A DNA stretch of 59,181 nt from Rozella allomycis CSF55 (lineage: Eukaryota): NCBI GenBank assembly GCA_000442015.1, contig KE561226.1:1-59181 (forward strand), written 5' to 3'. Shown one piece after another: positions 11,827 through 59,181 of the stretch; the stretch's first letter is position 1; each line of letters begins with the position of its first letter. Made by a program: the position numbers and the translations under genes. A model generated the notes under the pieces. The model was not told the DNA's origin and searched no databases. It was given only the letters and a program-made list of their open reading frames with translations.

Positions 11827-14800
11827 ATGTCGTTTTACTGCCTGACTGCACAACCCTCAAGCGCAGTACTAACTTCTTTTGAATGCAATTTTACTGGCGA
11901 AAGTGATTTAAATCTTATTCTAAAGTAAAATAAAAAGGAATATTTTATAGTTATGGCACGAGAATAGTAGTCTACACCGTAACTGAATTTGGTTTGACGC
12001 AAACATTTAATATACCTATAAATGGATGTATATGTATCTTGAAGCCAGTCAAGGTTTCTGGAAGGAAGGAATCGTTGTTATTTGTGTTGACAGAAAAATA
12101 TCACTGTTTTATGTTGGGATATGATGTTGANCTGTATCTTGAAGCCAGTCAAGGTTTCTGGAAGGAAAGAATCGTTGCTCTTTGTGTTGACAGAAAAATA
12201 TCACTGTTTTATGTTGGGATATGATGTTGAGAAGAAGTCTGTGAAGACTATATCGACAGTTGACATTAAAGATAGGTTTGATAGAATAAGTGAAAATGGA
12301 CCGCTGTGCACTGTTGATAATCTAGGCCGATGCATAGTGTTGTCATTTTCACAAGGCTATGTCAAGGTAATTCAACTGGATGAAAATGGGAAAATATGTG
12401 AATCGTTTCCGCTGAGAATTGAAGCACTGGATATAGTATCGATGACGTTGATACCCGGCCATAATAACCCATTGATTGGAATGATCACTCAAGACTACCA
12501 GGAAGCGCGACATTTTGAAACTTTTGAAATATTTTTGAACCAAAAAGAATTAAATGTTTATGGATGGACAAGGAAGAATTTAGAGCGAGGGGCTAATCAT
12601 TTAATTGGACTTGAGAGTGCCGTTGTGATGATTGGTGAACATTCTATAATGTATTTTGGTGATAATGGATTCAAAAAAGAGATTGAAATGAAGCCAACAA
12701 TTGTTACTTGTGTTTGCAGAATGACTGAAAACTCCAACATGTTTCTTATTGGAGATTACAAAGGAAGACTGATGATTTTAACGATTCAAGGAAAAGCCAA
12801 AAATGTTAATTTAGATCTTGAAGAAATGGGAAATACAAATATTCCAAAGTCAATAACTTATTTAGACAATGGATTTCTATTTATTGCAGGGGGTTACTCT
12901 GATTCTCAATTGATTCAACTTCTTCCAAAGATGGATGAAAATGGTAGAAAAATAAAAATAATTGAAAATTTTACAAACATTTCTCCCATGACTGATTTCG
13001 TTTTAGAACAAATTGATCAACAACAAAGCCAGCTGATTTGCTGCAGTGGTGGCTATGAAGAGGGTTCAATACGAAGAATAAGGAATGGTGTTGGGATAGA
13101 AGAACTGGCTACGCTAGAATTAGAAGGAATAGAGTCAGTCTTTCCTATCAATAAAACAGCCAATGGAATGGAATTGGATGATAACACTACCCAATCACAG
13201 AAAACAGTTGAATCTTTACTTTTACTTTCATTTGCTAACAGCACACGAATTCTTTCTCTTATAGAATCAGAGTTTGAGCAAGTCGAGTACCCAGCATTTG
13301 AATTGCATCAAAAAACTATTTATTGCAAAAACATGTTTGATAAAATACTTCAAATAACAACAAATAAATTAATTTTAATTCACCCAGAGTCATTTGAGAG
13401 AATATGCGAGTTGAAGTTGGAAACAATAAATAAAGTTTCAGTCAGTGGCACAGTCGTTGCTGTTGCGATTGGAAAGAAGGTTGCTTTGTACAAAATAAGT
13501 AACGAAATTAAAGAAATTGCATCAATGAAAATGGAAAATGAAGTATCATCAGTCGGTGTGGATGATTCCATGCTGGTTTCTGTTGGCTTTTGGAATGATT
13601 GTAGCGTAAGAGTTTACAATGCAACAGATGTGAAATGGAAAGAAATGTTTAAAGATGAATCATTGAATGTTATTAGTAGATCAATGTTATTTGTTAAGAA
13701 TAATGAAACTGTTTACTTGATGGTAGGAATGGGTGATGGTCGATTGGTTTATTACAATTTGAATGAAGATTATAAAAGAAAAATTATTTCTCTTGGCTCT
13801 AATCACGTGGATCTTTCAACATCTCTTACTGGGGTGTTTGCATCATGTGATCACCCTGTAATGCTCTTTTTTGAACGATCTAAACTTTATTACTCTTCAA
13901 TTAATGTTCCAAATATAAAATCTCTTTGTCATTTCAATTCTCCTCACTTTCCAAATTCTGTAGTTTATTCCACGCCTTTAGCCTTAACAATTGGATCCAT
14001 TGATGATTTAGCAAAGCTGCACATTGAAACATCAATTATCGATTGTCACATCAGAAATATCACTAAATTCACTCCAAATAACATTTTCATTGCAAACACT
14101 ATTAACGTTAATGTAATTGAAAGTGAAATGAGAGAAGAGAAAACTTCATCAGTTAGAGTGTTTTCATACGACTTTAGACGTATCTTTTTCTATTAAATCT
14201 TATTTAGAAATTTCAGAATTCAAATTGGATCAACATGAAGAAGCTTCATCTGTTTCAATGATTTCAATTGGTCTTGAGGATTACGTTGTGGTTGGAACTG
14301 CTTACACAAGCAACATGCAAGACAATCTGAAAGCAACAAGCGGAAGAGTTCTCTTGTTTAAAGTTGATTCATCGTCAAATTTGATTCTAATCAGCCAAGT
14401 CAAAGTAGATGGATGTGTCTATTCCGTTNTAACATGCAAGACAATCTGAAAGCAACAAGCGGAAGGGTTCTCTTGTTTAAAGTTGATTCATCTTCAAACT
14501 TGATTCTAATCAGCCAAGTCAAAGTAGATGGATGTGTCTATTCCGTTCGACCCTTGTTGGGCAAAATAGCCGCCGCAATAAACAACAAGGTACTTTATTC
14601 TTAATCAAAAGACTCAATAGATTCATATCTTCGAATATCAAGAAAACACCTTGAAGCCTCTTGTAACTCAATCTGGATTCATTCTCATTCCTTGCATGGA
14701 AACTAGAGACAATCTCATTTTGGCGGGGGATTTAATGCGATCAGCCACATTACTGCAATTCAATCACGCGGAAAACAAAATTGAACCTGTTTGTATTGAT

Positions 14801-18801: not shown

Positions 18802-21711
<2,910 letters not shown>

Positions 21712-21972
21712 CTTGAAAAAAATTGTTTTCCGAATTTTACTGAATGTGATCATGTTTCTTTTAAATGTAGACTTGATTACCCTTTCAAATGATATTTTTA
21801 CAGTTTAATATACTGTTTTTTAATTACGTATGTCTTGATAAGAAACAAGAAAATTACAAAGTTGCACTCACTAAATAAGCTCCTTATACTTAAAACTTTT
21901 TAGTCGTTGTAAACCATAATTATGTATTTGTATAATTCTTTATTAATCATGCAGATTTAACGTTGTTTATAT

Positions 21973-22602
21973 TCAGCGAACTCTGGCAGGTTGTCTGACA
22001 GTGTAATATTTTCCACTCCTGGTTGTGTATTTAGACAAGATTTCTTTCATTCTTTTGCGGCTATTTCGTGCACTTATATAGGCTGGTAATCCGCCAACGG
22101 TATGACTGACAAATGATTCTGCAAAACCTCTTGCATACTTTGCATTTGAATCCGCTGCTCTTGTAGTAGTGGATTCACCCCAAGCAGCAGTTTCCGCTCC
22201 GAATGCGACCAAATTCTTGGGACCAGACACCATTCGCCCAGCTTTCTGACCGAATCTTGATAGCTTTGAATCAAACTGAGATGATTTCAAATCTTTTATC
22301 GTTGATTCTTTAATCATGCTGAAACCTGAAGGTTGCTTGGTTTGCCAGTCAAGTAAAGCTTCCACCATGTTGTTTCTCGTCATCGATTTGCTGCTACCTG
22401 GCTCATAAAGAACGACGCGCTTTAGTGCTTCGTCTATGTTTCCTCCATTTATTCCTGCCAGTCTTCCTTTGAACTCTTCAATACTCATTGTAGAGTCTCC
22501 ACGGAGAGCTTCATAAACAAGCTTACTTAAATCATCGAAATCAGCAGGAACTGCAATAGTAAAGGCTAGTAATACGAAAAAAGTCGCGATAAAAAATCTC
22601 AT
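21973..22602 (-). CDS. Hypothetical secreted protein (209 aa)
   Basis: Intronless ORF with signal peptide MRFFIATFFVLLAFTIA-VP. Confidence 0.75.
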   Translation of the reverse strand: MRFFIATFFVLLAFTIAVPADFDDLSKLVYEALRGDSTMSIEEFKGRLAGINGGNIDEALKRVVLYEPGSSKSMTRNNMVEALLDWQTKQPSGFSMIKESTIKDLKSSQFDSKLSRFGQKAGRMVSGPKNLVAFGAETAAWGESTTTRAADSNAKYARGFAESFVSHTVGGLPAYISARNSRKRMKEILSKYTTRSGKYYTVRQPARVR

Positions 22603-25558: not shown

Positions 25559-26297
25559 ATGTTCATTTTAGACTGGTTCCGTTCCATTTTGGATTTTCTT
25601 GGTAATTTTAAACGCAATGCATAAAAGGTCTTTCACAGAAGAATGCGAAACTATTATTTTTAGGATTAGACAATGCAGGCAAGACAACTCTATTGCACGT
25701 CCTAAAAAATTCACGTATGGCGACACTGCAGCCAACTCTCCATCCAAGTATATCAAAATAATATGTTTTTTGTAGCTAGTGAGGAATTGATCGTTGATTC
25801 TGTTAAATTTACCACATTTGATTTGGGTGGCCATAAACAAGGTAAGGTTGATGATGGGCTTTAATATAGCGAGAAGATTGTGGAGAGATTATTTTCCAGA
25901 AGTTTCTGGAATCGTTTACATGGTGGATTGTGCTGATGTTAAGAGATTAAATGAGAGTATTGAAGAATTTGGAGTAAGAAGATTATAATTGTCGTGATAG
26001 AACCTTTTGACAATGGAAGAAATTTCCAAGGTTCCGATTCTTGTTCTAGGAAATAAAATTGATCTTCCAGGTACGATATTATTTGGTGTGTGAAAAGGCG
26101 CCATATCTGAAGAAGAATTGCGTTATCGCTTTAATCTCCAAATGACAACTGGAAAAGTAAGAATGATTAAAACTTATTACATGCAGGGCAAAGTTGCTTT
26201 GGCCGAAAACATTCGCGCTATTGAAGTGTTCATGTGCTCCATTGTTCTAAAGAGTGGATATGGCGAAGGATTCCGTTGGTTGTCGCAATACGTTTAA
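25559..26297 (+). CDS. SAR1: Small GTPase Sar1 (COPII)
   Basis: [27 protein letters not shown] and [17 protein letters not shown]. Six introns of 26-30 nt. Confidence 0.97.
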
Positions 26298-26370
26298 TAT
26301 AAATAATTTTCACGGATTTATTTCTTTTAACCTTTATTGAGTGTCTTTTGAATCCAAGCCACCTGTATTA

Positions 26371-29300
26371 ATGCAAATTTTTTCCACGGTCCCTGATGAG
26401 CTTATAGAGCAATTCCGTGCCCTTTATGCAAATATAACGCAAGATCCCAATAAGCTGTGCAGAGAGCTGGAAGAGAAGGGTGTTGAATATTTGGAGCCGT
26501 TAACGCTTACTATTGAGACGGTGATCAAGGTATGTGTGTATTAAAGAGAGTATTTAGTATGACAAGCCTGATCTAGTTTTAATTTTTCTGCGCTGTTTGA
26601 CTGCTATTGTAAAGATTATATCAACGCCATTGACTCGCCAGTATGCGATTATGTTTAGCAAGTCGCTATTAACAAGGCATCGAAAGGCGATTAATAGATG
26701 GTTTTATATGAGCGAGGGAATAAATTTGGTAGCGGAAATGTGCATGTTGGGTCCGAATGTTGTAAAGGATGTTTTGGGCACTGTGGATATATCGGATGCG
26801 AAGGTTAAGAAAATTGTTGAGAGTAGGGGTGATAAGACTAGGAGGAGTGTGTTGGAATGGATTAGTGCGATGCTGGAGAATGGCAGTGAGAGTCAAGTGA
26901 GTGAGATTGTTTCTACGAAAGATTTCCTGTCGGTTTATTTTAAGAATTTGGGTGTGGATTCTTTTGAAAATGTTAGGAGGTGGATTGATTTGTTGAATAG
27001 ATGTGTTTTGGATAATGTGAAGATATCGAAGAATGCAAAGTTGGGAGTGTTTACGTTAAAGGCGCTTTCACAGACTGCAGATATTTTTCGTAATGAGAAG
27101 AGTGAGATGGAGTTAAAGGAGATAGTTTTTGAGTGGTTAAAGAAGATATGTTGTGAGCCTGGACAAGGAGTGTGTTTTAAAGATGAAGGATGGAGCAAGA
27201 CTAGAGTGAAGAATAAACTGTTGATGGATTTGATAAATGAAAAGTTGAATCCATTGGAATCAAAGTATGAATTTATGTTAACATTGGAAATATTGAAAGT
27301 GTGTCCTGAACTTGTTTGTGGATATTTTTCAAAGAAATATGTGAATCTTGAGTGTAAAGATGAAGAGTCTTGGATTGCTAGAATGGCTTTAGCGATTAAG
27401 ATTGTGCAGCAGCCAATACCAGAACAATTGACAGATAATATTAACGTGTTGATTGATAATGTGTGTCCAAGTGGTATGAATAAGAACGTGTTGACGAAGT
27501 TATTGCAAACAGAGAATGAAACGATTAGACATTTCACTCTTGCGCTTGTTTCTGCCTGTTGTAAAAGATTCGAAGATATTTTGAATAAATTGTTGGGTGA
27601 AGATTGGCGAGAAAAGAGGGAAGATTTGAAAATTATGTTTCGAAAGAGATTGGCAGATTTTCAAGTATTTGTTTCGATATTTCCCAAAGTGAAACAAGAA
27701 GAAAATGATTTGAATTCAATCAAGTTTATTTTAGAAATATTTTTATTTTTTGAAAAGAATTATCCCCACGTGATTTTGGATAATAGATTTGATTTTTCTA
27801 AATTGATTCCAAATAATTTAAAATCTTTAAAAGAAGAAGAAAAGGAGAATTATTTTGAGATTATGAAGCGAGTGAATGATATCTCATGGTTTAGTGGGGA
27901 AGAAACTATTTTTCTTCAATTGATAGAAATGGAAAGAAGAGATTTAGTTTATCATTGTATTTCATGTAGTGGTTTAATTGAGAATGAAGTATCAGCAATT
28001 CTAGTTTACAATTTACCTTTAAAGCAAACGCAAGTCTTTAAATTCTTGAATAATGTTCTTTTAACAGTTACAACGAAATCCAAACCATTTTTTGAAACGT
28101 TTATTGAACAAGGGCTAAGATTAATGAAATCTGAAAAAATGAAAGAGAATGAAAAGAAAAATATTGAAATATTTTTTGTTAAGATTTTGGCAATTTCTAG
28201 ATGGAGTGGCTTTGAGATTGAATCTATTCTAAAAATAGTTTTAGAAAAATTGAAAATAGAACAAATTCCAGATTATGCAGATTTGAAAAACGAATCTAAA
28301 ATTTTGAATGATTATTTTGAAAAAAATGATTTGTTTTATTTAATAAAGAATAAAAATTTTGATCTTGTTTTTGAAAGATTGAAGTTTGTTGAAAAGGAAA
28401 TGTTTAAAACGATTTCAACTTTATTAATTGAAGAGTATAAACAGAATGGATTAAAAATTATAAGAGATTGTTTGAATTTATTAAATTTCAAAGATAATGA
28501 ACGTTTGTTAAATATTTGTTTAGAAAAGGGGCATGATTCAAAAGAAGTTTTAGATTTAGTTTTATTAACAAATAAATATTCTCTTGTTAAAGATTATGTT
28601 GTACAAGTTAAAGATGATGAATTGACATGGGTTGTTAGAAATGAATTTTCTTTTGAACAACTTGAAAATATTTTACAATCTAAATTTTATCTTTTAAAAA
28701 TTTCATTTGAAAGAAATTTAGAAAATTTAATTCTATTAAAAGATTCATTAAAATTTTATCCCAAAGAAACAGAAAATTTTATTCTTTCTTCTTGCCTTTG
28801 CATTGAAAAGTTGGCTTCAAGTGTAAATGAAGATTGTATTACATTTTTACCATTTTCTTTAATTGCTTTATTTTCAAAATTTAATCTCAAGTTTAGTTTA
28901 AATTCAATCTTTTCTAATTCATTTCTTGATGAAATTTTGTCTTGTTCTGAATCAACTCTAAACATAAACCCTGAATTCACAATTGACATTCTTTGTCATG
29001 CTAAAAAGGAACATTTCAAACTTTTGTTAAATCAATTAATTCATTTAGATTTAAAATATATTAAATCTTTTATTGGAAAATATAAACATTCTAAAAAATT
29101 AGTTAACCAATTTAGAACATCTGAAAATTCCAAATTATTTTCTCTATTTTTAGAAACAGAAATATTTGGAAATTTCAAAATTAAATCTGATGAATTTTCA
29201 GAGTACATTTCAAAAGCATTAAAGCAATTCCATCTTTATTCCAACATTGATAAATGTTTAATTGAATATCCCGAATATTTTACCTTTTCAATTTGCGTCC

Positions 29301-44743: not shown

Positions 44744-45189
44744 ATGAGTGACGAAACTAATGAATCTTACGATTCAATTCCTAGTTTCTCGATTGAGGAT
44801 TTTGAAATGCCTAAATCTAGCATTTTTAAAATGCTAAAGGAAGAATTTAACTCGACAGTACAAATACACAAAGACACGAAGAATGTAATATCAAAAATTT
44901 TAATAGTATTTGTCTGCTTCCTAACAAATGAGTAATTCCCCTTATAACATTTATTAGGGCTGGTAAGATCGCATCAAAGAAAGGACAAAAGTCGCTCTCA
45001 GCGAAGCATGTTCTGGAGGCGCTGAAAAGTATTGAATATCCAGAATTCGTAGATGAAATTCAAAGTAAGTTTCTGTATTTATAAAAAGTAGGTACTTTAA
45101 GTCTTCGTAAATCAGGTAAAGGCCCAACTGTTACAGAACCTTCGCAGGTCGATTCTTTAGACCAAGCGCGTACAGATCAAAGCATATAA
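44744..45189 (+). CDS. Histone-fold NF-YB-type protein, DPB4/POLE3-like (NC2-beta not excluded)
   Basis: IEDFEMPKS..KMLKE..VFVCFLTNEA..KSLSAKHVLEALKSIEYPEFV. Introns 44932-44957 and 45065-45091. Confidence 0.75.
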
Positions 45190-47835: not shown

Positions 47836-48950
47836 ATGACAACGAGAAAATCAAGAGAGTCAAAGAACACTTGGTTTTCTATCGCCCTCCAAGATCACAT
47901 TGTCAAGGAATTAGATCTTGGACTAGGCATAAAAAGTAAACTCTCGCGCTAAAATTAAGAGGATTTAATAAGAAATATAAATGTTCAACCCGTTTGAAAA
48001 AATATGTAGACTCTTCACAAGCTTCACAAGAAAGGGTACTTGATGAACGTGACACATTTCGTTCTTTGGCTCATGAAATAGGCCTAATTGATTATTCCAA
48101 TGGCAAACTTACAGAAGAGAATTGGCAAAACATAAAAGTTAAAAGTCATGATCGAGGCACTAATTTTGATTCATGTCCCGTTTGCCAAGAAGGATGGCAT
48201 TTAGGAACTCAAGTATACATTAAAATTAAAAGAGATAAGGTATTATTAAGTTGCAGTCATTCATTCCATTTAAAATGTATTAAAACGTATGAAACGCACA
48301 TATCCAAGAAATGCTGTCCAATATGCCGAGAGACAAATTATAGTAAAAGGGTTATATTTGAAGGCAAAAAACGAGCAATGGAAATGTCAGCGATACTGTA
48401 AGATGCATATTAGAATTACACTATAGAATCCAAAAAGTATACCGCGGATACAAAACAAGAAAGCAATTCAGAAACATATTACAAAGTCAAGAGCCGATAA
48501 ATAAAAGGTGGAAGAAGATACATTATGAGGACAAGGTAAAATATTCTTTTTAGTTATCATCTGTGCATGAGAATAGGAGAAACAATGGATGCCACTCTGC
48601 AAGAAGACTCAATGGAACTGTCAAATTTTCTTGATGAAATGGACGAAATCATTAACCGTTCGAAATCAGTTAATTTAGAATCTACCGATGAAAAGTCTAA
48701 AGAAGACACACTATGGGATAGGATTGAAGAGTCTTTTCGGGAGCATCAGCAGGATTCATGTCCTATTTGTTTAGAGCAACTTTGGAAAATGAATAATCCG
48801 TTCAGGAAGACATACATTTTGAGTTGCTCGCATGCGTATCACGGGACATGTATTAAAAACTTTGAGAAATTCAGTTCAAGTTTGAAATGCCCTGTTTGCA
48901 GAACTGAATATACAAGAAAAGAAATAAGACAAGAAATAAAGGATCATTAA
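47836..48950 (+). CDS. RNF32: RING finger protein 32-like (two RING-H2 domains and an IQ motif)
   Basis: N-terminal ALQDH, two CPxC...LSCSHxxHxxC...CPxCR fingers, separated by IQKVYRGY. Confidence 0.85.
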
Positions 48951-51732: not shown

Positions 51733-52000
51733 ATGCTAAATTAAGATTTGATGGAATAAATATTTCAGTTTTGTTATTCTAAAAGGTTAAGATGTTCGGA
51801 TTACATGACCATGAGAATAATTACCAGAATAAATCTTACGAGAATTGTTGCTTTATTAAATCGCTGATGAATAGATACTTTCTGAATCCTTTTAATATAT
51901 ATCTAACTACCGTCTTTCAACCATTAACGTTCAACTATACAAAATTATTCTCGGCCCTGATATAAATAGAGTGTCGACCCTGGACACATTTGTTGACGAT

Positions 52001-55000
52001 ATGAGTGAACGCATACCTATAATATTCAAGGAGCACTTGCAGGTAAGCTTTAAAAATATCCAAATAAAGCTCCAAAACATTGGTGTGAATGCAGCAAACA
52101 TAGGCTTCAACACTTTGACTATGGAATCGGACAAGTACATTTGTATTCGCGAAAAGGTTGGCGAGCAGAACCAGTTGGTGATAATCGACATGGGCGATGT
52201 ATCCAACCCGTTGCGCCGTCCTATATCCGCTGATTCAGCGATTATGAATCCGGCATCCAAGGTGATTGCACTGAAAGGTAGATGGTTTGTTTCTGGATAA
52301 TGTAGCTGGCAAGCAGTTGCAGATATTTAATTTGGAGCTCAAGGCCAAGATAAAGTCGTTCATGTTGAGCGACGATGTGGTGTTTTGGAAGTGGATTAAT
52401 GTGAACACTATTGGGATGGTGACGGAGAGTGCTGTGTTTCATTGGAGCATGGAGGGGGAGAGCAATCCGGTCAAGGTGTTTGATCGGCATGCGTCGTTGA
52501 ATGGGTGCCAGATTATCAATTATAGGACGAATGAGGAGGGCAGCTGGATGTTCTTGGTGGGGATATCTGCGCAACAGGGAAGAGTTGTTGGATCGGTGCA
52601 GTTGTATTCAAAGGAGAGGAGTGTGTCGCAGCCTATTGAGGGACATGCTGCGGCCTTTGCAGAGATAAAGTTGGATGGCGCGATGTATCCTACAAAGTTG
52701 TTTACGTTTGCGGTGAGAAGTCAGATGGGTGCAAAGGTAATTGAGTGGGTGTGGTTAGAGTAGCTTCATTTAATTGAGATTGATCACAAGGAGGGGAATC
52801 CTGTGTTTGCCAAGAAGAATGTTGATATATTTTTCCCGCCCGAGGCTGTGAATGATTTTCCAGTTTCGATGCAAGTTTCAAGCAAATACAATGTGATATT
52901 TTTAGTTACTAAATATGGTTTTTTGCATATTTATGATGTTGAGAGTGGAATGTGTTTGTATATGAACAGGATATCAGCTGATACGATATTTGTGACTGCA
53001 GATTATGAGACTACGAGTGGGATGATTGGAGTGAATAGAAAGGGGCAAGTAACGATTAATGGTTGAAAAGAAAGGTGTTGTCTGTGAGTATTGATGAGCA
53101 AAACATTGTGCCATATATTTTGCAGCAGATGAATAATCCCGAGTTGGCTATAAGAATAGCATCTAGAAATAATTTGCCTGGTGCTGATGAATTGTATGTT
53201 GGTAGATTTAATCAGCTTGTTCAAATGGGAAATATGTCAGAGGCTGCCAAAGTAGCTGCAACGTCACCAAAGGTATAGAATGATTTGTGTTTGGAATCAA
53301 GGGGATATTGAGAACTCCACAAACAATAGAAAAGTTTAAGCAAATGCAGGTAAGAATGTAGATATGGATTGAGAGGTGCAACCGGGACAAGTTCCGCCAA
53401 TTTTGCAATACTTTGGAATATTGTTAGAAAAGGGAGATTTGAACAAGTATGAATCTATTGAGCTAGCGAGACCTGTGTTGATGCAAGGGAAGAAGCAGTT
53501 GTTGGAGAAATGGTTGAAAGAGAATAAGTTGGAGTGTAGTGAAGAGTTGGGAGACATTGTGAAGCAGCAAGATGTGATGTTGAGTTTGAGTGTTTATTTG
53601 AGGGCGAACATCCCACATAAAGTGATTCAGTGTTTTGCAGAGACTGGACAGTTTAATAAGATTGTGTTGTATGCCAAGAAAGTTGGGTATCAGCCAGACT
53701 ATTTATTCTTGCTGCAAACTATTTTGAGAGTGAATGGAGAAAAGGGAGTAGAATTTGCGCAAGAGTTGGTTAAGAGTGAAGGAGGCCCATTGTTGACTTT
53801 GGAGCAAATAACTGAATGTTTTATTACAGCTGGTATGGTTCAGCAACTGACAGCGTTTTTATTGGAAGCATTGAAGGAGAATAAACCAGAGCAAGGTGGA
53901 TTGCAAACTAGGTTGATAGAGATGAATTTGATGCAAGCGCCGCAAGTAGCAGATGCTATATTGGGCAATCAAATGTTTAGTCATTATGATAAGAACAGTG
54001 TAGCTCAGATGTGTGAAAAGGTTGGATTGTATCAAAGAGCGTTGGAACATTATACTGACATTTATGATATAAAGAGGACAATAGTGCATACACATTTGTT
54101 GAATCCAGAAGTAAAATGATTTGAGTGAGATGATTGTAGTGGGTAGTTGGGTTTTTTGGCAAGTTGTCAGTTGAGCAGAGTATGGAATGTTTGAAAGAAA
54201 TGTTGAATAACAATATAAGACAGAATCTGCAGATTGTGATTCAAGTTGCAACTAAATATTCAGATTTAATTGGAGCACAAAATTTGATTGAATTGTTTGA
54301 ATCATTCAAGAGTTATGAAGGTAAGATTGATTTAATTTAATTTGTTATTAGGATTGTATTATTATTTGGGATCTATTGTGAATTTTAGCCAAGATGGGAA
54401 TGTGCATTTCAAGTATATCCAAGCAGCGTGTAGAACAGGACAGATGAAGGAAGTTGAAAGGATTTGCCGGGAGAGTGGAGTGATTGATGGAGAAAAAGTG
54501 AAGAATTATTTAAAGGAAGCGAAACTGAATGACCAATTGCCATTGATTATCGTTTGTGATCGATTTAATTTTGTGCATGATTTGGTATTGTACCTTTATA
54601 AGAACAATCTACCTAAATATATTGAAATTTATGTGCAAAAGGTGAATCCAAGTAGAACTCCAGCAGTTATAGGAGCATTGTTGGATGTTGATTGTGAAGA
54701 GAATATAATAAAGTCATTGTTGATGAGTGTGAGAGGGAATATTCCTATTGATGAATTGTGTACTCAAGTGGAGCAAAGAAATAGATTAAAAGTAAATTGT
54801 TAATGAGTAAGAAAAGAGATTATATTGCCATTCTTGGAGATGAAGATAAAGGAGGGAACTAGTGACCAGAATGTGTATAATGGGATTGCCAAGATTTACA
54901 TTGATAGCAACAATAATCCTGAATCATTCTTAAAAGAAAACAAGGTAATGCAATTTATATTTTAATATAGGTAATGATAAAGTAAACTCCCAGATTAGAT

Positions 55001-57681
55001 GTATGATCCATTGGTGGTTGGAAAGTATTGTGAAAAGAGAGATCCCTATTTGGCATTTATAGCATATGAACAAGGGAGATGTGACAAGGAAGTTATTAAA
55101 ATAACAAATGAGAATCAAATGTTTAAACACCAAGCAAGATATTTGGTAAAGAGAAGAGATATTGAATTGTGGATGAGTGTGTTGATTGATAATCCCTTCA
55201 AGAGAGAATTGATAGATCAAGTAGAATAAATAGATTGAATTTAAAAGGTTGTAGGAATAGCGTTGCCAGAAACACAAGATCCAGAAGATGTGTCAGTTAC
55301 TGTTAAAGCGTTTATGAATGCAGAATTGCCAAATGAGTTGATTGAATTATTAGAAAAGATTGTTTTGGAATCATCAGTGTTTAGTGATAATAGAAATCTG
55401 CAGAATTTGTTGATATTGACTGCGATTCAAGCTAATCCAACTAAAGTGTTGGAGTTTGTGCAGAGATTGGACAACTATGATGGGCCAGATATAGCCAATA
55501 TAGCAGTTGGAAATGGATTGTATGAAGAAGCATTCATCATCTACAAGAAATACAATATTTATGAGAATGCAATTAGAGTGTTGATTGAGAATATAAAGAA
55601 TGTAGAGAGGGGACAGGAATATGCGAATCAAGTTGATCAATCCATTGTGTGGTCTATCTTGGCAAAGGCGCAGTTGGAAGAAAAGAGAATTAAAGAGAGT
55701 GTTGAATCTTATTTGAAAGCGAGTGATGCTTCTAATTATGAGCAAGTGTTGAGTGTGTTGAAAGAGATTGGAGAATATGAACAATTGATTAAATATCTGA
55801 GAATGGCTAAAACAAAGAGCAGAGAATCTATTATTGAATCAGAATTACTCTACTGTTTAGCCATGACAAATAGAATTGCTGAAATTGAAGAATTTTTATC
55901 AAATACAAATATAGCTAATGTGGAAATGGTTGGAGATCGATTATATGAACAAGAAATGTATCTTCCTGCTAAAATATTGTTTAATTCAATTTCCAACTAT
56001 GCTAAATTAGCGTCAACGTTGGTTCATTTGAAAGAGTACCAGCAGGCTGTTGAGTGTGCTAGAAAAGCTAATAGTACAAGGTTAGTTTAATTGATTGTTT
56101 AAATTTGTAGAGTTTGGAACCAGGTTATTGTTGCTTGTATTGAAATGAAAGAGTTTAGATTGGCTCAGATCTGTGGGTTGAATTTGATTGTGCATGCGGA
56201 AGAATTGTCTGTTGTTATAAAGTTGTATGAGCAGAATGGATTTATTGAAGAATTAACGAATCTATTAGAAAGTGGACTAGGTAATTAATAGTAGTTATAT
56301 GTTAAATAGGTAATTGATAGTACCTCTCTCTATAATGTTAGGTAATTACTTTCAACTTCACTAACTCATAGGTATGGAAAGAGCTCATATGGGGTTGTTT
56401 ACAGAGTTGGCGATTGTTTATTCAAAATATAAACCAGAAAGATTGATGGATCATTTGAAATTGTATTATTCAAGAATCAATATACCCAAAGTTATTAAAT
56501 CAGTTGAATTGGCACACATGTGGCAAGAATTAGTATTTCTGTACATCCATTATGAAGAATTTGACAATGCAGCACTTTCAATAATAAAATATTCAGCAGA
56601 CGCTTGGGATCATGATCAATTTAAAAATGTTTTATTAAAAGTTTCGAATTCTGACATTTTCTACAAGGTAAATTCTGTTAAGATATAAGAGAAAAAGAGT
56701 TTGAATTTCTATTTGAATGAACATCCATTATTGTTGAATGATTTATTAAATTCAATCAGCCAAAAGATTGATTACACAAGGCTAGTTCAAATATTTCAAA
56801 AGAATAATCATCTTCCATTAATCAAACCATTTCTACAAACAATTCAACAAGTAAACTTTTGAATTTTGAATTTTAAAGATTAATAATCCAACTGTTAACA
56901 TGGCATTCAATCAACTATTAATAGATGAAGAAGATTACAACGCTTTAAGAATCTCTATTGACTCTTTTGAAAACTTTGATTCTATTTCATTGGCTGTTTC
57001 TCTAGAAAATCATCCATTAATTGAATTTAGAAGAATTTCTGCTTATTTATACAAAAAGAATAAGAGATACAAGCAATCTGTTACTCTGTCAAAGAAGGAT
57101 TTGTTGTTCAAAGATGCAATGGAAACAGCTGCAGAGTCTAGAGACTATGAGACGGCTGAAGAGTTGTTGAAATATTTTGTCAAGAATAACAAAAAGGTAC
57201 GTGAAAAGTTTAAATGTTATATTAGGTAAAGTTGTTTAATTGTATTTATAATAGGTAAAGTTGTTTAATTGTTTATAATAATAGGTAATCAAAGTATTTA
57301 ATCACTTCAAAATAGGAATATTTTAGTGCTTGTCTTTATATCTGCTATGATTTGTTAAGACCTGACGTTGTTATGGAATTGTCTTGGAGATTCGGTTTAA
57401 TGGACTTTGCTATGCCATTCATGTGTCAAACTATGCGTGAGTACATGACAAAGGTATTTCATTCAATTCATCCATCAGTAGATTGAAACATTAGAGAAAC
57501 ACAACAATGAACGAAATCAAAAAGAAGAAGAAGCTGAAAAAAGAGCCATTGACAATTCAATCATCAGAGGTACTCTTTTAACTAATTTATTTCTATAGGT
57601 GCTCCTTTGATGCTTACTAATGGTCCTGTATCAATTCCAAACACTTCTCAAGCTCAAATGCCATTCATCCCTCAATGGTAA
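52001..57681 (+). CDS. CHC1: Clathrin heavy chain
   Basis: [78 protein letters not shown] and PLMLT. 18 intron positions comprising 24 GT-AG units of 26-32 nt. Confidence 0.98.
54945..54998 (+). other. Tandem micro-intron pair (26+28 nt), zero-length exon
   Basis: AAG|gtaatg...aatatag|gtaatg...gattag|ATG. Flanking exons join as LKENK-MYDPLVV. Confidence 0.8.
56281..56371 (+). other. Tandem micro-intron triplet (29+32+30 nt)
   Basis: Three consecutive GTAATT...TAG units. Flanking exons join as [12 protein letters not shown]. Confidence 0.85.
57197..57315 (+). other. Tandem micro-intron quadruplet (29+29+30+31 nt)
   Basis: Four consecutive GTA...TAG units. Flanking exons join as [13 protein letters not shown]. 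Confidence 0.85.
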
Positions 57682-57758
57682 TAAATGGTTAAAGATTTTA
57701 AACTATTCAAATATTTCATACTATCAATTTCACTTGGAATGATCACATTTAAATTTGT

Positions 57759-58888
57759 TTATTTTTTACTACTCCAAAAGTGCTTGATAACATCAGTCAA
57801 AGTAACAACACCAATCAACTTTCTATCTTCATCAATAATCCACACCCTATGAGACTTTGTCGCTATAATCTTTCTCATAGCAAACCCTAGTGATGACTTT
57901 AACGTCACCTCAAACACTGGGAATCTATCCTTGCCTTCATTCTGCAATCCCTCCTGCGTCAACACCAACGACACAAAATGTGAACACGTTTGCCATAATC
58001 TCGAATATCTATTTTGCTTCAATATATACTATTCAATCATTAACATCCCACTTACCTTGATATCCGTCATTGATATATTCCCAACAAGCGATTCACCACT
58101 ACCAGCATCAACAACCGCAACCGAAGATATCCCCTTGGCACTCATCAAACTCAAAGCTTCAAGCACCGGAGCCTCACTATTCACCGAAATCACAGGATTA
58201 TTTCCAAATCCCAGCTCTCCAAGCGTCTTTGACGCAAACGCATTCAACTCTGGTTGCTACTCTACAATCATCCCTCCAATTACCTACCATCCTCAACCAC
58301 TACACCTCTTACCTTCATCAACAGTCCCGCCAGATACTTGACCACATCAGTCTGCGACAACACACCCACAACCTCGCCATCCCTCATCACATTCAGCCGA
58401 TGCACACCCTTCCCACTCGCCAGTATCTCCGCAGCCTCTTTCAACGGCGCATCAGCACTAACACTATAAAACGGATTCTTCTTTGACAAGTCTACTCTAC
58501 ACTCCACCAATCCCATACCAGCAGCCACACGCATCGACATCTTATTCACATCCATCGTAATCGCCTTGCGCACCACATCCCTAATATCCATCGTCTCGTC
58601 TTCAGGCACCCGCTCAAGCTCCCGGTGCTTGAAAACCATCAACACATAGTCCGCAATGTCGCGGTAGTCGAACATTCCAACATACTTTTTTAAGGCGGAA
58701 TCGTACACCGGCGCAGACGATATCTTGTGGCTCACAAGAACCTGGAATTTATATAGTGTTTGGTTACCTAGCTCAGTTAAAATTGATGGACGTACCTCAC
58801 AACCGTCTTCAATGGAATGGTCCGCATCGATTATTACTACCTTTTGGGAGGAAACTAGCTCGGAACATTGGATGTGCCACAAATCCAT
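57759..58888 (-). CDS. CBS-domain protein, SDS23/AMPK-gamma-like
   Basis: Four CBS repeats: ISSAPVYD..VGMFDYRD, GVHRLNV..GVLSQTD, GISSVAVVD..LVGNISMTDIK and SHRVWIIDE..IGVVTLTDVI. Confidence 0.88.
58257..58312 (-). other. Tandem micro-intron pair (29+27 nt)
   Basis: AAG|gtaaga...tggtag|gtaatt...gagtag|CAA. Removing both units restores the frame LMK-QPELNAF. Confidence 0.8.
58742..58795 (-). other. Tandem micro-intron pair (28+26 nt)
   Basis: GAG|gtacgt...agctag|gtaacc...ttccag|GTT. Removal gives a normally spaced CBS helix EDGCE-VLVSHKISSAP. Confidence 0.75.
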
Positions 58889-59181
58889 TTTTGGTTTACG
58901 AAATTTGGAAATTTGGGATTGCTAGGTGGAGAATTTAGTTAGGATTATTTTAAAATCCGTTCTTTTGTGAGTTGGCGCATTTCTCCTGTCTTTTGAATAT
59001 ACTATATTAAAGGCATTTTTACTTGAATATCCATTCAATGATAAACGCAGCTATAGTCAACGAGGCGTCAAGGATATGAAGTAATTACTATCGTTTTCAA
59101 TCATTTGTAAGTTTTCCCAAAGATACCTTGGAGTACATTAATACATTTATTCATTTTTTGAAGATTGCTATGAAGTTTTGG

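Follow-up and report, generated by a model that had tools for sequence, protein, structure and literature searches.

Recursive splicing through zero-nucleotide exons has been described at ratchet points in Drosophila and vertebrates (PMC13149111; 10.1101/006163). In the available parts of these accounts, the introns concerned typically exceed 10 kb, the events are rare and splicing intermediates have been demonstrated. Cases are also on record in yeasts: a 336-nt intron of S. pombe SPNCRNA.445 is spliced recursively (10.1101/226894), and a 375-nt intron of C. neoformans BOT1 is split into 210 + 165 nt (10.1101/224170). The excerpts of these sources deal with one or two isolated cases, each with a single internal site and, where sizes are given, with segments of at least 165 nt. 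The stwintrons of filamentous fungi comprise several short U2 introns removed in consecutive reactions under intron definition; they are nested, in that a splice signal of one intron is broken by the other, which imposes an inside-out order, and abutting compound introns are separated there from nested ones (PMC6616335). Proposed mechanisms of intron gain include tandem genomic duplication and introner-like elements (PMC3296678; PMC3609843). The classic duplication model turns exon sequence into an intron at a new position; introners multiply as numerous structured copies. The intron density of Rozella is treated in PMC8476143, with no mention of stacked introns in the passages found, and the words 'recursive', 'tandem' and 'Rozella' are absent from the portion seen of a paper on tiny animal introns (PMC13644364). 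A literature search, with most subscription papers and supplements outside its scope, returned no account of stacked introns in Rozella.

The window analysed in the current study is the whole 59,181-nt stretch of contig KE561226.1 of the fungal parasite Rozella allomycis CSF55 (assembly GCA_000442015.1, positions 1 to 59,181, forward strand). Near its end, region 57197–57315 is an intron within the clathrin heavy-chain gene. This region, here termed array 3, can be cut exactly into four GT–AG units of 29, 29, 30 and 31 nt, as an earlier sequence-only reading had proposed; each unit runs GT...TAG, and the units abut at three internal AGGT joints with zero bases between. Unit 1 (57197–57225, +, 29 nt, GTAC...TAG) supplies the outer 5' splice site and follows an exon ending in AAG. 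Units 2 (57226–57254, +, 29 nt) and 3 (57255–57284, +, 30 nt) are duplicates of each other, differing only near the 3' end, and unit 4 (57285–57315, +, 31 nt) supplies the outer 3' splice site; all three read GTAA...TAG. When the interiors of array 3 were shuffled, 1 in 100,000 sequences could be tiled by GT–AG units of 26–32 nt.

No coding base lies inside the array. Alignment of the protein with 11 homologues reveals neither an indel nor an extra residue at this site, so the whole 119 nt must leave the mRNA, and if units are left in, a stop is reached within 7–23 codons in all 15 retention subsets. The same two results rule out a microexon between the introns. The public gene model has array 3 as one intron. 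No stable fold joins its ends (z +1.39), no hairpin shortens it, and z-scores for all five arrays described below range from -0.69 to +1.39, none better than shuffles. An Rfam search of 51900–59181 with E up to 1 gave 0 matches, and thus nothing to suggest that the units contain an RNA gene.

As in recursive splicing, an acceptor AG directly abuts a donor GT within a stretch that is wholly removed, and stepwise removal is proposed; there are three such AG/GT joints in array 3, and eight in the five arrays, with no exon base between. In contrast to the animal cases, the sites follow every 29–31 nt within 119 nt, and the very long host intron, a typical although not strictly defining trait, is lacking. 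Unlike animal ratchet points, the segments are complete introns of a size normal for this genome, their stepwise removal would be forced by the proposed length limit, and the data on array 3 are DNA sequences. The yeast cases share with Rozella a fungal host and an annotated intron made of abutting introns around a zero-nucleotide exon. Rozella differs from them in that all five long introns of two genes are affected, with up to four units and a visible duplication. Stwintrons are similar in comprising several short introns removed consecutively, but the Rozella units abut, and all 13 retain an intact GT and AG; array 3 was rejected as a stwintron, as no unit interrupts the donor or acceptor of another.

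The clathrin heavy-chain gene (52001–57681, +) has 19 exons and 18 intron sites, comprising 15 single introns and three arrays. The sites were obtained by mapping P0002, the clathrin heavy chain of R. allomycis CSF55, onto the window; the large exon at 55248–56078 is 100% identical to it. Our own spliced aligner, given only a Gonapodya clathrin, returned the same 18 introns, including those of 54, 91 and 119 nt. All 15 single introns are 26–31 nt long, and all three longer introns are stacks, of two, three and four units. Array 1 (54945–54998, +) consists of units of 26 + 28 nt after residue 898, and array 2 (56281–56371, +) of units of 29 + 32 + 30 nt at residue 1307; comparison with the 11 homologues shows no indel at any of the three array sites. 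The exon after array 2 (56372–56404, +) begins GTA behind TAG, and the next AG is 33 nt on. This is just past the length of the largest unit (32 nt), possibly a limit that keeps the ratchet out of the exon. A strong coding-strand skew of G over C is seen in the clathrin gene, as well as in 20001–22000 and 26001–28000, and the third-position G content of the clathrin gene drops along its length, being 0.43 at the 5' end and 0.14 at the 3' end.

Tail to tail with clathrin lies a CBS-domain gene (57759–58888, -), 100% identical to the R. allomycis CBS-domain protein P0121. It contains two two-unit arrays, at 58742–58795 (-, 28 + 26 nt) and 58257–58312 (-, 29 + 27 nt). The first, a stack of 54 nt, is treated as coding by the public model and there forms an 18-residue insertion missing from all five homologues, and a single intron of 27 nt (58492–58518, -) is kept there as nine residues, also missing from five homologues. 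Both insertions mark unspliced introns. Stacks can thus mislead annotation, the 54-nt stack and the 27-nt intron both being part of the public CBS protein.

All five longer introns demanded by homology in these two genes (three in clathrin and two in the CBS gene) are therefore stacks, with 13 units and eight internal junctions in total. Per 100,000 shuffles, the five arrays tile by chance 1, 6, 591, 303 and 8136 times, the 56-nt two-unit array doing so in 8% of shuffles. A strict scan of the window for back-to-back junctions gave 12, against 3.2 ± 1.6 (maximum 6) in 30 Markov sequences; eight of these are the joints of the five arrays, and the other four correspond to the background level of 3.2. 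Given this background, the hits at 45092/45116, 56372 and 58312 were not accepted as arrays, and 45092/45116 reads as open exon.

Elsewhere in the window, introns were taken from a gene model that assembled complete genes, permitted introns of 20–130 nt and favoured those of 24–34 nt. This yielded 68 single introns, all of 26–31 nt, following removal of six calls (three near N and three doubtful, including one of 33 nt and one of 44 nt), correction of one length and addition of one intron by homology. Because the model favoured 24–34 nt, the length rule is firm for the clathrin and CBS genes and model-dependent elsewhere. A flat-length ab initio model was discarded as too noisy, since numerous long introns that it called were false, some of them within clathrin itself. 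One gene of the window, which we take to be S23-like, has two introns of 30 nt each. An R. allomycis S23 gene has been described, in the part of the source available, as having two introns of about 30 nt without a conserved branch-point motif (PMC6349667). In a RING-finger-like gene, the intron at 48536–48563 (+) has no in-frame AG acceptor at 15–60 nt; among cuts of 24–33 nt, the frame is kept by 25, 28 and 31 nt only, that of 28 nt ending in TG. This intron is a candidate for a length-set, non-AG 3' splice site.

Stepwise removal of array 3 appears quite likely. The Rozella spliceosome may find the 3' splice site by its distance from the 5' site, some 26–32 nt, and make little use of a branch-point motif, and under such a limit 119 nt could not be removed at once. 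Each unit would be spliced as an intron of its own, and any removal would leave an AG/GT joint and a shorter stack. The units need not leave in 5' to 3' order, because every unit has both ends and a TAG/GTAA context; the order is possibly free, and every complete path would end in the same mRNA. The motif CT[AG]A is scarce in Rozella (5 of 68 single introns and 2 of 13 units), which fits a choice of 3' site by distance. In 11 fungus-like metagenome clathrin genes with introns mostly of 30–45 nt, the motif occurs in 81 of 102 introns, and none of the nine longer introns of these genes is tiled.

The internal sites are uniform. All eight junctions read TAG/GTAA and all 13 units are 26–32 nt long, compared with TAG in 43/68 and GTAA in 47/68 single introns; the enrichment is p 0.034 for TAG and 0.065 for GTAA singly, and 0.0013 for the two together on the assumption of independence, which units 2 and 3 violate. 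The ends of the units look to be held by selection while the interiors drift, because junctions and lengths are constant and most interiors have lost any likeness to one another. This agrees with the suggestion of the sequence-only reading that diverged units keep GT, AG and length under selection. It also bears on the alternative that all 119 nt leave at once, spliced between the outer sites, the internal AG/GT joints being unused relics of duplication, since relics should decay, yet both junctions and unit lengths are preserved between dissimilar interiors. Removal in one step is consistent with the single intron of the public model and with the plain clathrin introns of 47–134 nt in other fungi whose introns are 30–45 nt long. 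Against this, every homology-demanded long intron is tiled and no hairpin brings the ends of array 3 closer, so that one-step removal seems unlikely.

A metagenome scan identified 77 clathrin loci, none of them close, the best having 73% identity over part of the protein. An intron at residue 1562, the site of array 3, is present in none of the 24 intron-bearing loci that cover it, and one at the array 2 site in none of 21, with no close relative among either set; at the array 1 site, loci L029 and L030 have one 48-nt intron. Among 172 introns called in the metagenome loci, the only tileable one is a 78-nt call (the same in L076 and L077), which is unreliable at 42% identity. An unplaced group (L003, L006, L014–L022 and L068) has introns of 30–45 nt with clear CTRA branch motifs and, where covered, a plain first intron of 67–134 nt. 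Lacking stacks, this group can serve as a control lineage.

Of the 73 intron sites in the window, 13 consecutive ones include all five stacks (54945–58795; p 0.002), and there are none in the first 54 kb. Their clustering at the contig end points to a regional process. It has a bearing on a second alternative, that removal is stepwise but the stacks have been selected as a delay or a splicing-coupled decay switch that tunes expression. Such a role would suit the concentration of stacks in two neighbouring genes and the premature stop in every partial product. However, stops are expected anyway in retained AT-rich introns, a local mutational process explains the clustering equally well, and one array seems, as a hint only, to vary between haplotypes (see below). 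We know of no evident common regulation of clathrin and the CBS protein, which also counts against a switch. Selection for such a function is, overall, rather improbable.

The origin of the units is clearest for units 2 and 3 of array 3. Their first 18 nt are identical, and their global interior score of 37 exceeds the background from 2278 pairs of single introns in the window (mean -0.3, maximum 22). Tandem Repeats Finder reports a repeat at 57217–57288 with a period of 29, 2.4 copies and 90% matches. The near identity of the two units and their recent duplication, as first proposed, are thereby confirmed, and these data support their derivation from a recent duplication in tandem, roughly one intron long. 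That this duplication copied a whole intron holds as regards duplication, but the register is not fixed, as the repeat starts within unit 1 (57217) and ends in unit 4. The break may therefore sit anywhere near a junction, and a duplication out of register, spanning a junction already present, would fit equally well.

The broader claim that whole-intron duplication builds the arrays stands for units 2 and 3 but not in its generality. Of eight neighbouring pairs in the five arrays, one is clearly related, one is suggestive and six are unrelated, and duplication as the general source is for that reason presumed. For units 1 and 2 of array 2 the shuffle p is 0.009, a level also reached, in the 78 pairs tested, by units that belong to different arrays. 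Global alignment of array 3 units 1 and 4 with units 2 and 3 is not significant (shuffle p 0.12–0.36), and the 3' half of unit 1 has a weak local match to units 2 and 3 (empirical p 0.012–0.031, shuffle p 0.07–0.15). A tandem duplication of about one intron over an AG/GT joint may be the only large insertion tolerated in such a genome, since the new unit would be valid. Any duplication of 26–32 nt over an existing joint would have this effect, so that stacks should grow more easily than they start. After duplication both internal sites would be essential, and would be kept while the interiors drift. As in gain by duplication or introners, new units would arise from copied DNA that carries splice signals; in contrast to classic tandem duplication, the intron would be copied where it stands, no exon intervening, and in contrast to introners, no copy family or fold is found in the Rozella window. 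By eye, array 3 has no evident likeness to its flanking exon.

It could instead be supposed that only units 2 and 3 are a slippage duplicate and that the older units are other introns inserted at AG/GT joints, by reverse splicing and reverse transcription or as an introner-like element. The six unrelated neighbouring pairs are in keeping with this, as is the resemblance between unit 1 of array 2 and unit 4 of array 3 in the same gene (shuffle p 0.008), but cross-array similarities are no greater than 78 pairs would yield by chance. In all five arrays the upstream exon terminates in AG, against 24/68 single introns (p 0.008). This excess, too, is in favour of insertion, but it disappears when single introns of the same two genes are used (11/17, p 0.17), and duplication also predicts an exonic AG. 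When the 13 units were compared with each other, no near-identical dispersed copies were found beyond the neighbouring pair 2/3, and the stable secondary structure of introner-like elements is absent from all five arrays. Insertion would also leave aside the weak match between the 3' half of unit 1 and units 2 and 3. Insertion as the source of the older units is thus very improbable, and growth by duplication is preferred.

That the array is real DNA is evident from sequencing runs compared over 51900–59181 (X2, X5, X6 and X8, four of the 15 listed). Array 3 is crossed by single contigs of X2 (56356–59171), X5 (56825–57508) and X6 (56995–57702) with 0 other letters and 0 gaps. These runs come from three studies, and the sequences are contigs rather than single reads; the window itself may derive from X2. 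Spanning sequences with fewer units would have spoken against the array as originally read; in these contigs all four units are unchanged. Array 3 is not an assembly artefact, because contigs of three DNA runs cross it without difference, and it could not be confused in a 31-letter assembly, because its longest exact repeat is only 21 nt. Among the matches listed, contigs of X6 and X8 contain no intron-skipping joint, and both runs behave as DNA. As noted in the first reading, no N lies nearby, the last being at 14429 and none being within 42 kb of array 3.

Among the matches listed, X8 represents a second haplotype, about 2% apart and partly common to X6. The comparison at array 3 covers X2, X5 and X6, the listed X8 matches lying outside it, so that alleles there are unseen rather than absent. 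X8 has four small indels in unit 1 of array 1, and one of its contigs parts from the reference within array 2, at 56322, which is 13 nt into unit 2. The contig continues for 16 letters, 15 of which match the tail of array 2 unit 1 by eye, followed by a new GTAA. This single contig end gives no more than a hint of an array 2 haplotype whose second unit nearly copies unit 1. A further X8 joint, 56683–57253, with 23 letters on one side and a depth of 21, was set aside as probably chimeric. Near-duplicates in two copies split by a single N occur at 3210–3715, 6267–6755, 10551–10779, 12033–12230 and 14312–14547; these are haplotypes set in tandem by the assembler, and they break gene models. The presence of such duplicates and of two diverged haplotypes in the contig might suggest that array 3 is an artefact of the same kind, but this is hardly credible given its distance from any N, its short exact repeat, the unbroken identical contigs of three runs and the fact that units 1 and 4 are not alleles of units 2 and 3.

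We therefore regard it as likely that array 3 consists of four complete minimal introns, stacked and each spliced separately, and that such stacks grow by duplication. A bolder extension can be put forward only tentatively, with the balance tilted slightly against it: that nothing longer than about 32 nt is ever spliced in one step, and that every long intron is a self-propagating stack removed by obligatory, order-free recursive splicing, with whole units gained and lost in living populations. If this is true, Rozella would have a quantized intron system in which the birth of introns by duplication could be watched directly. The stacks offer a compact natural test of how sites are chosen on introns of about 30 nt, by a length ruler or by a motif, and of the way in which new introns originate and reach fixation although they bring no benefit. 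Recursive splicing has so far been regarded as an uncommon means of removing very long introns; if the proposed mechanism is correct, it would be the routine and forced means of removing stretches of 54–119 nt in a lineage next to the microsporidia.
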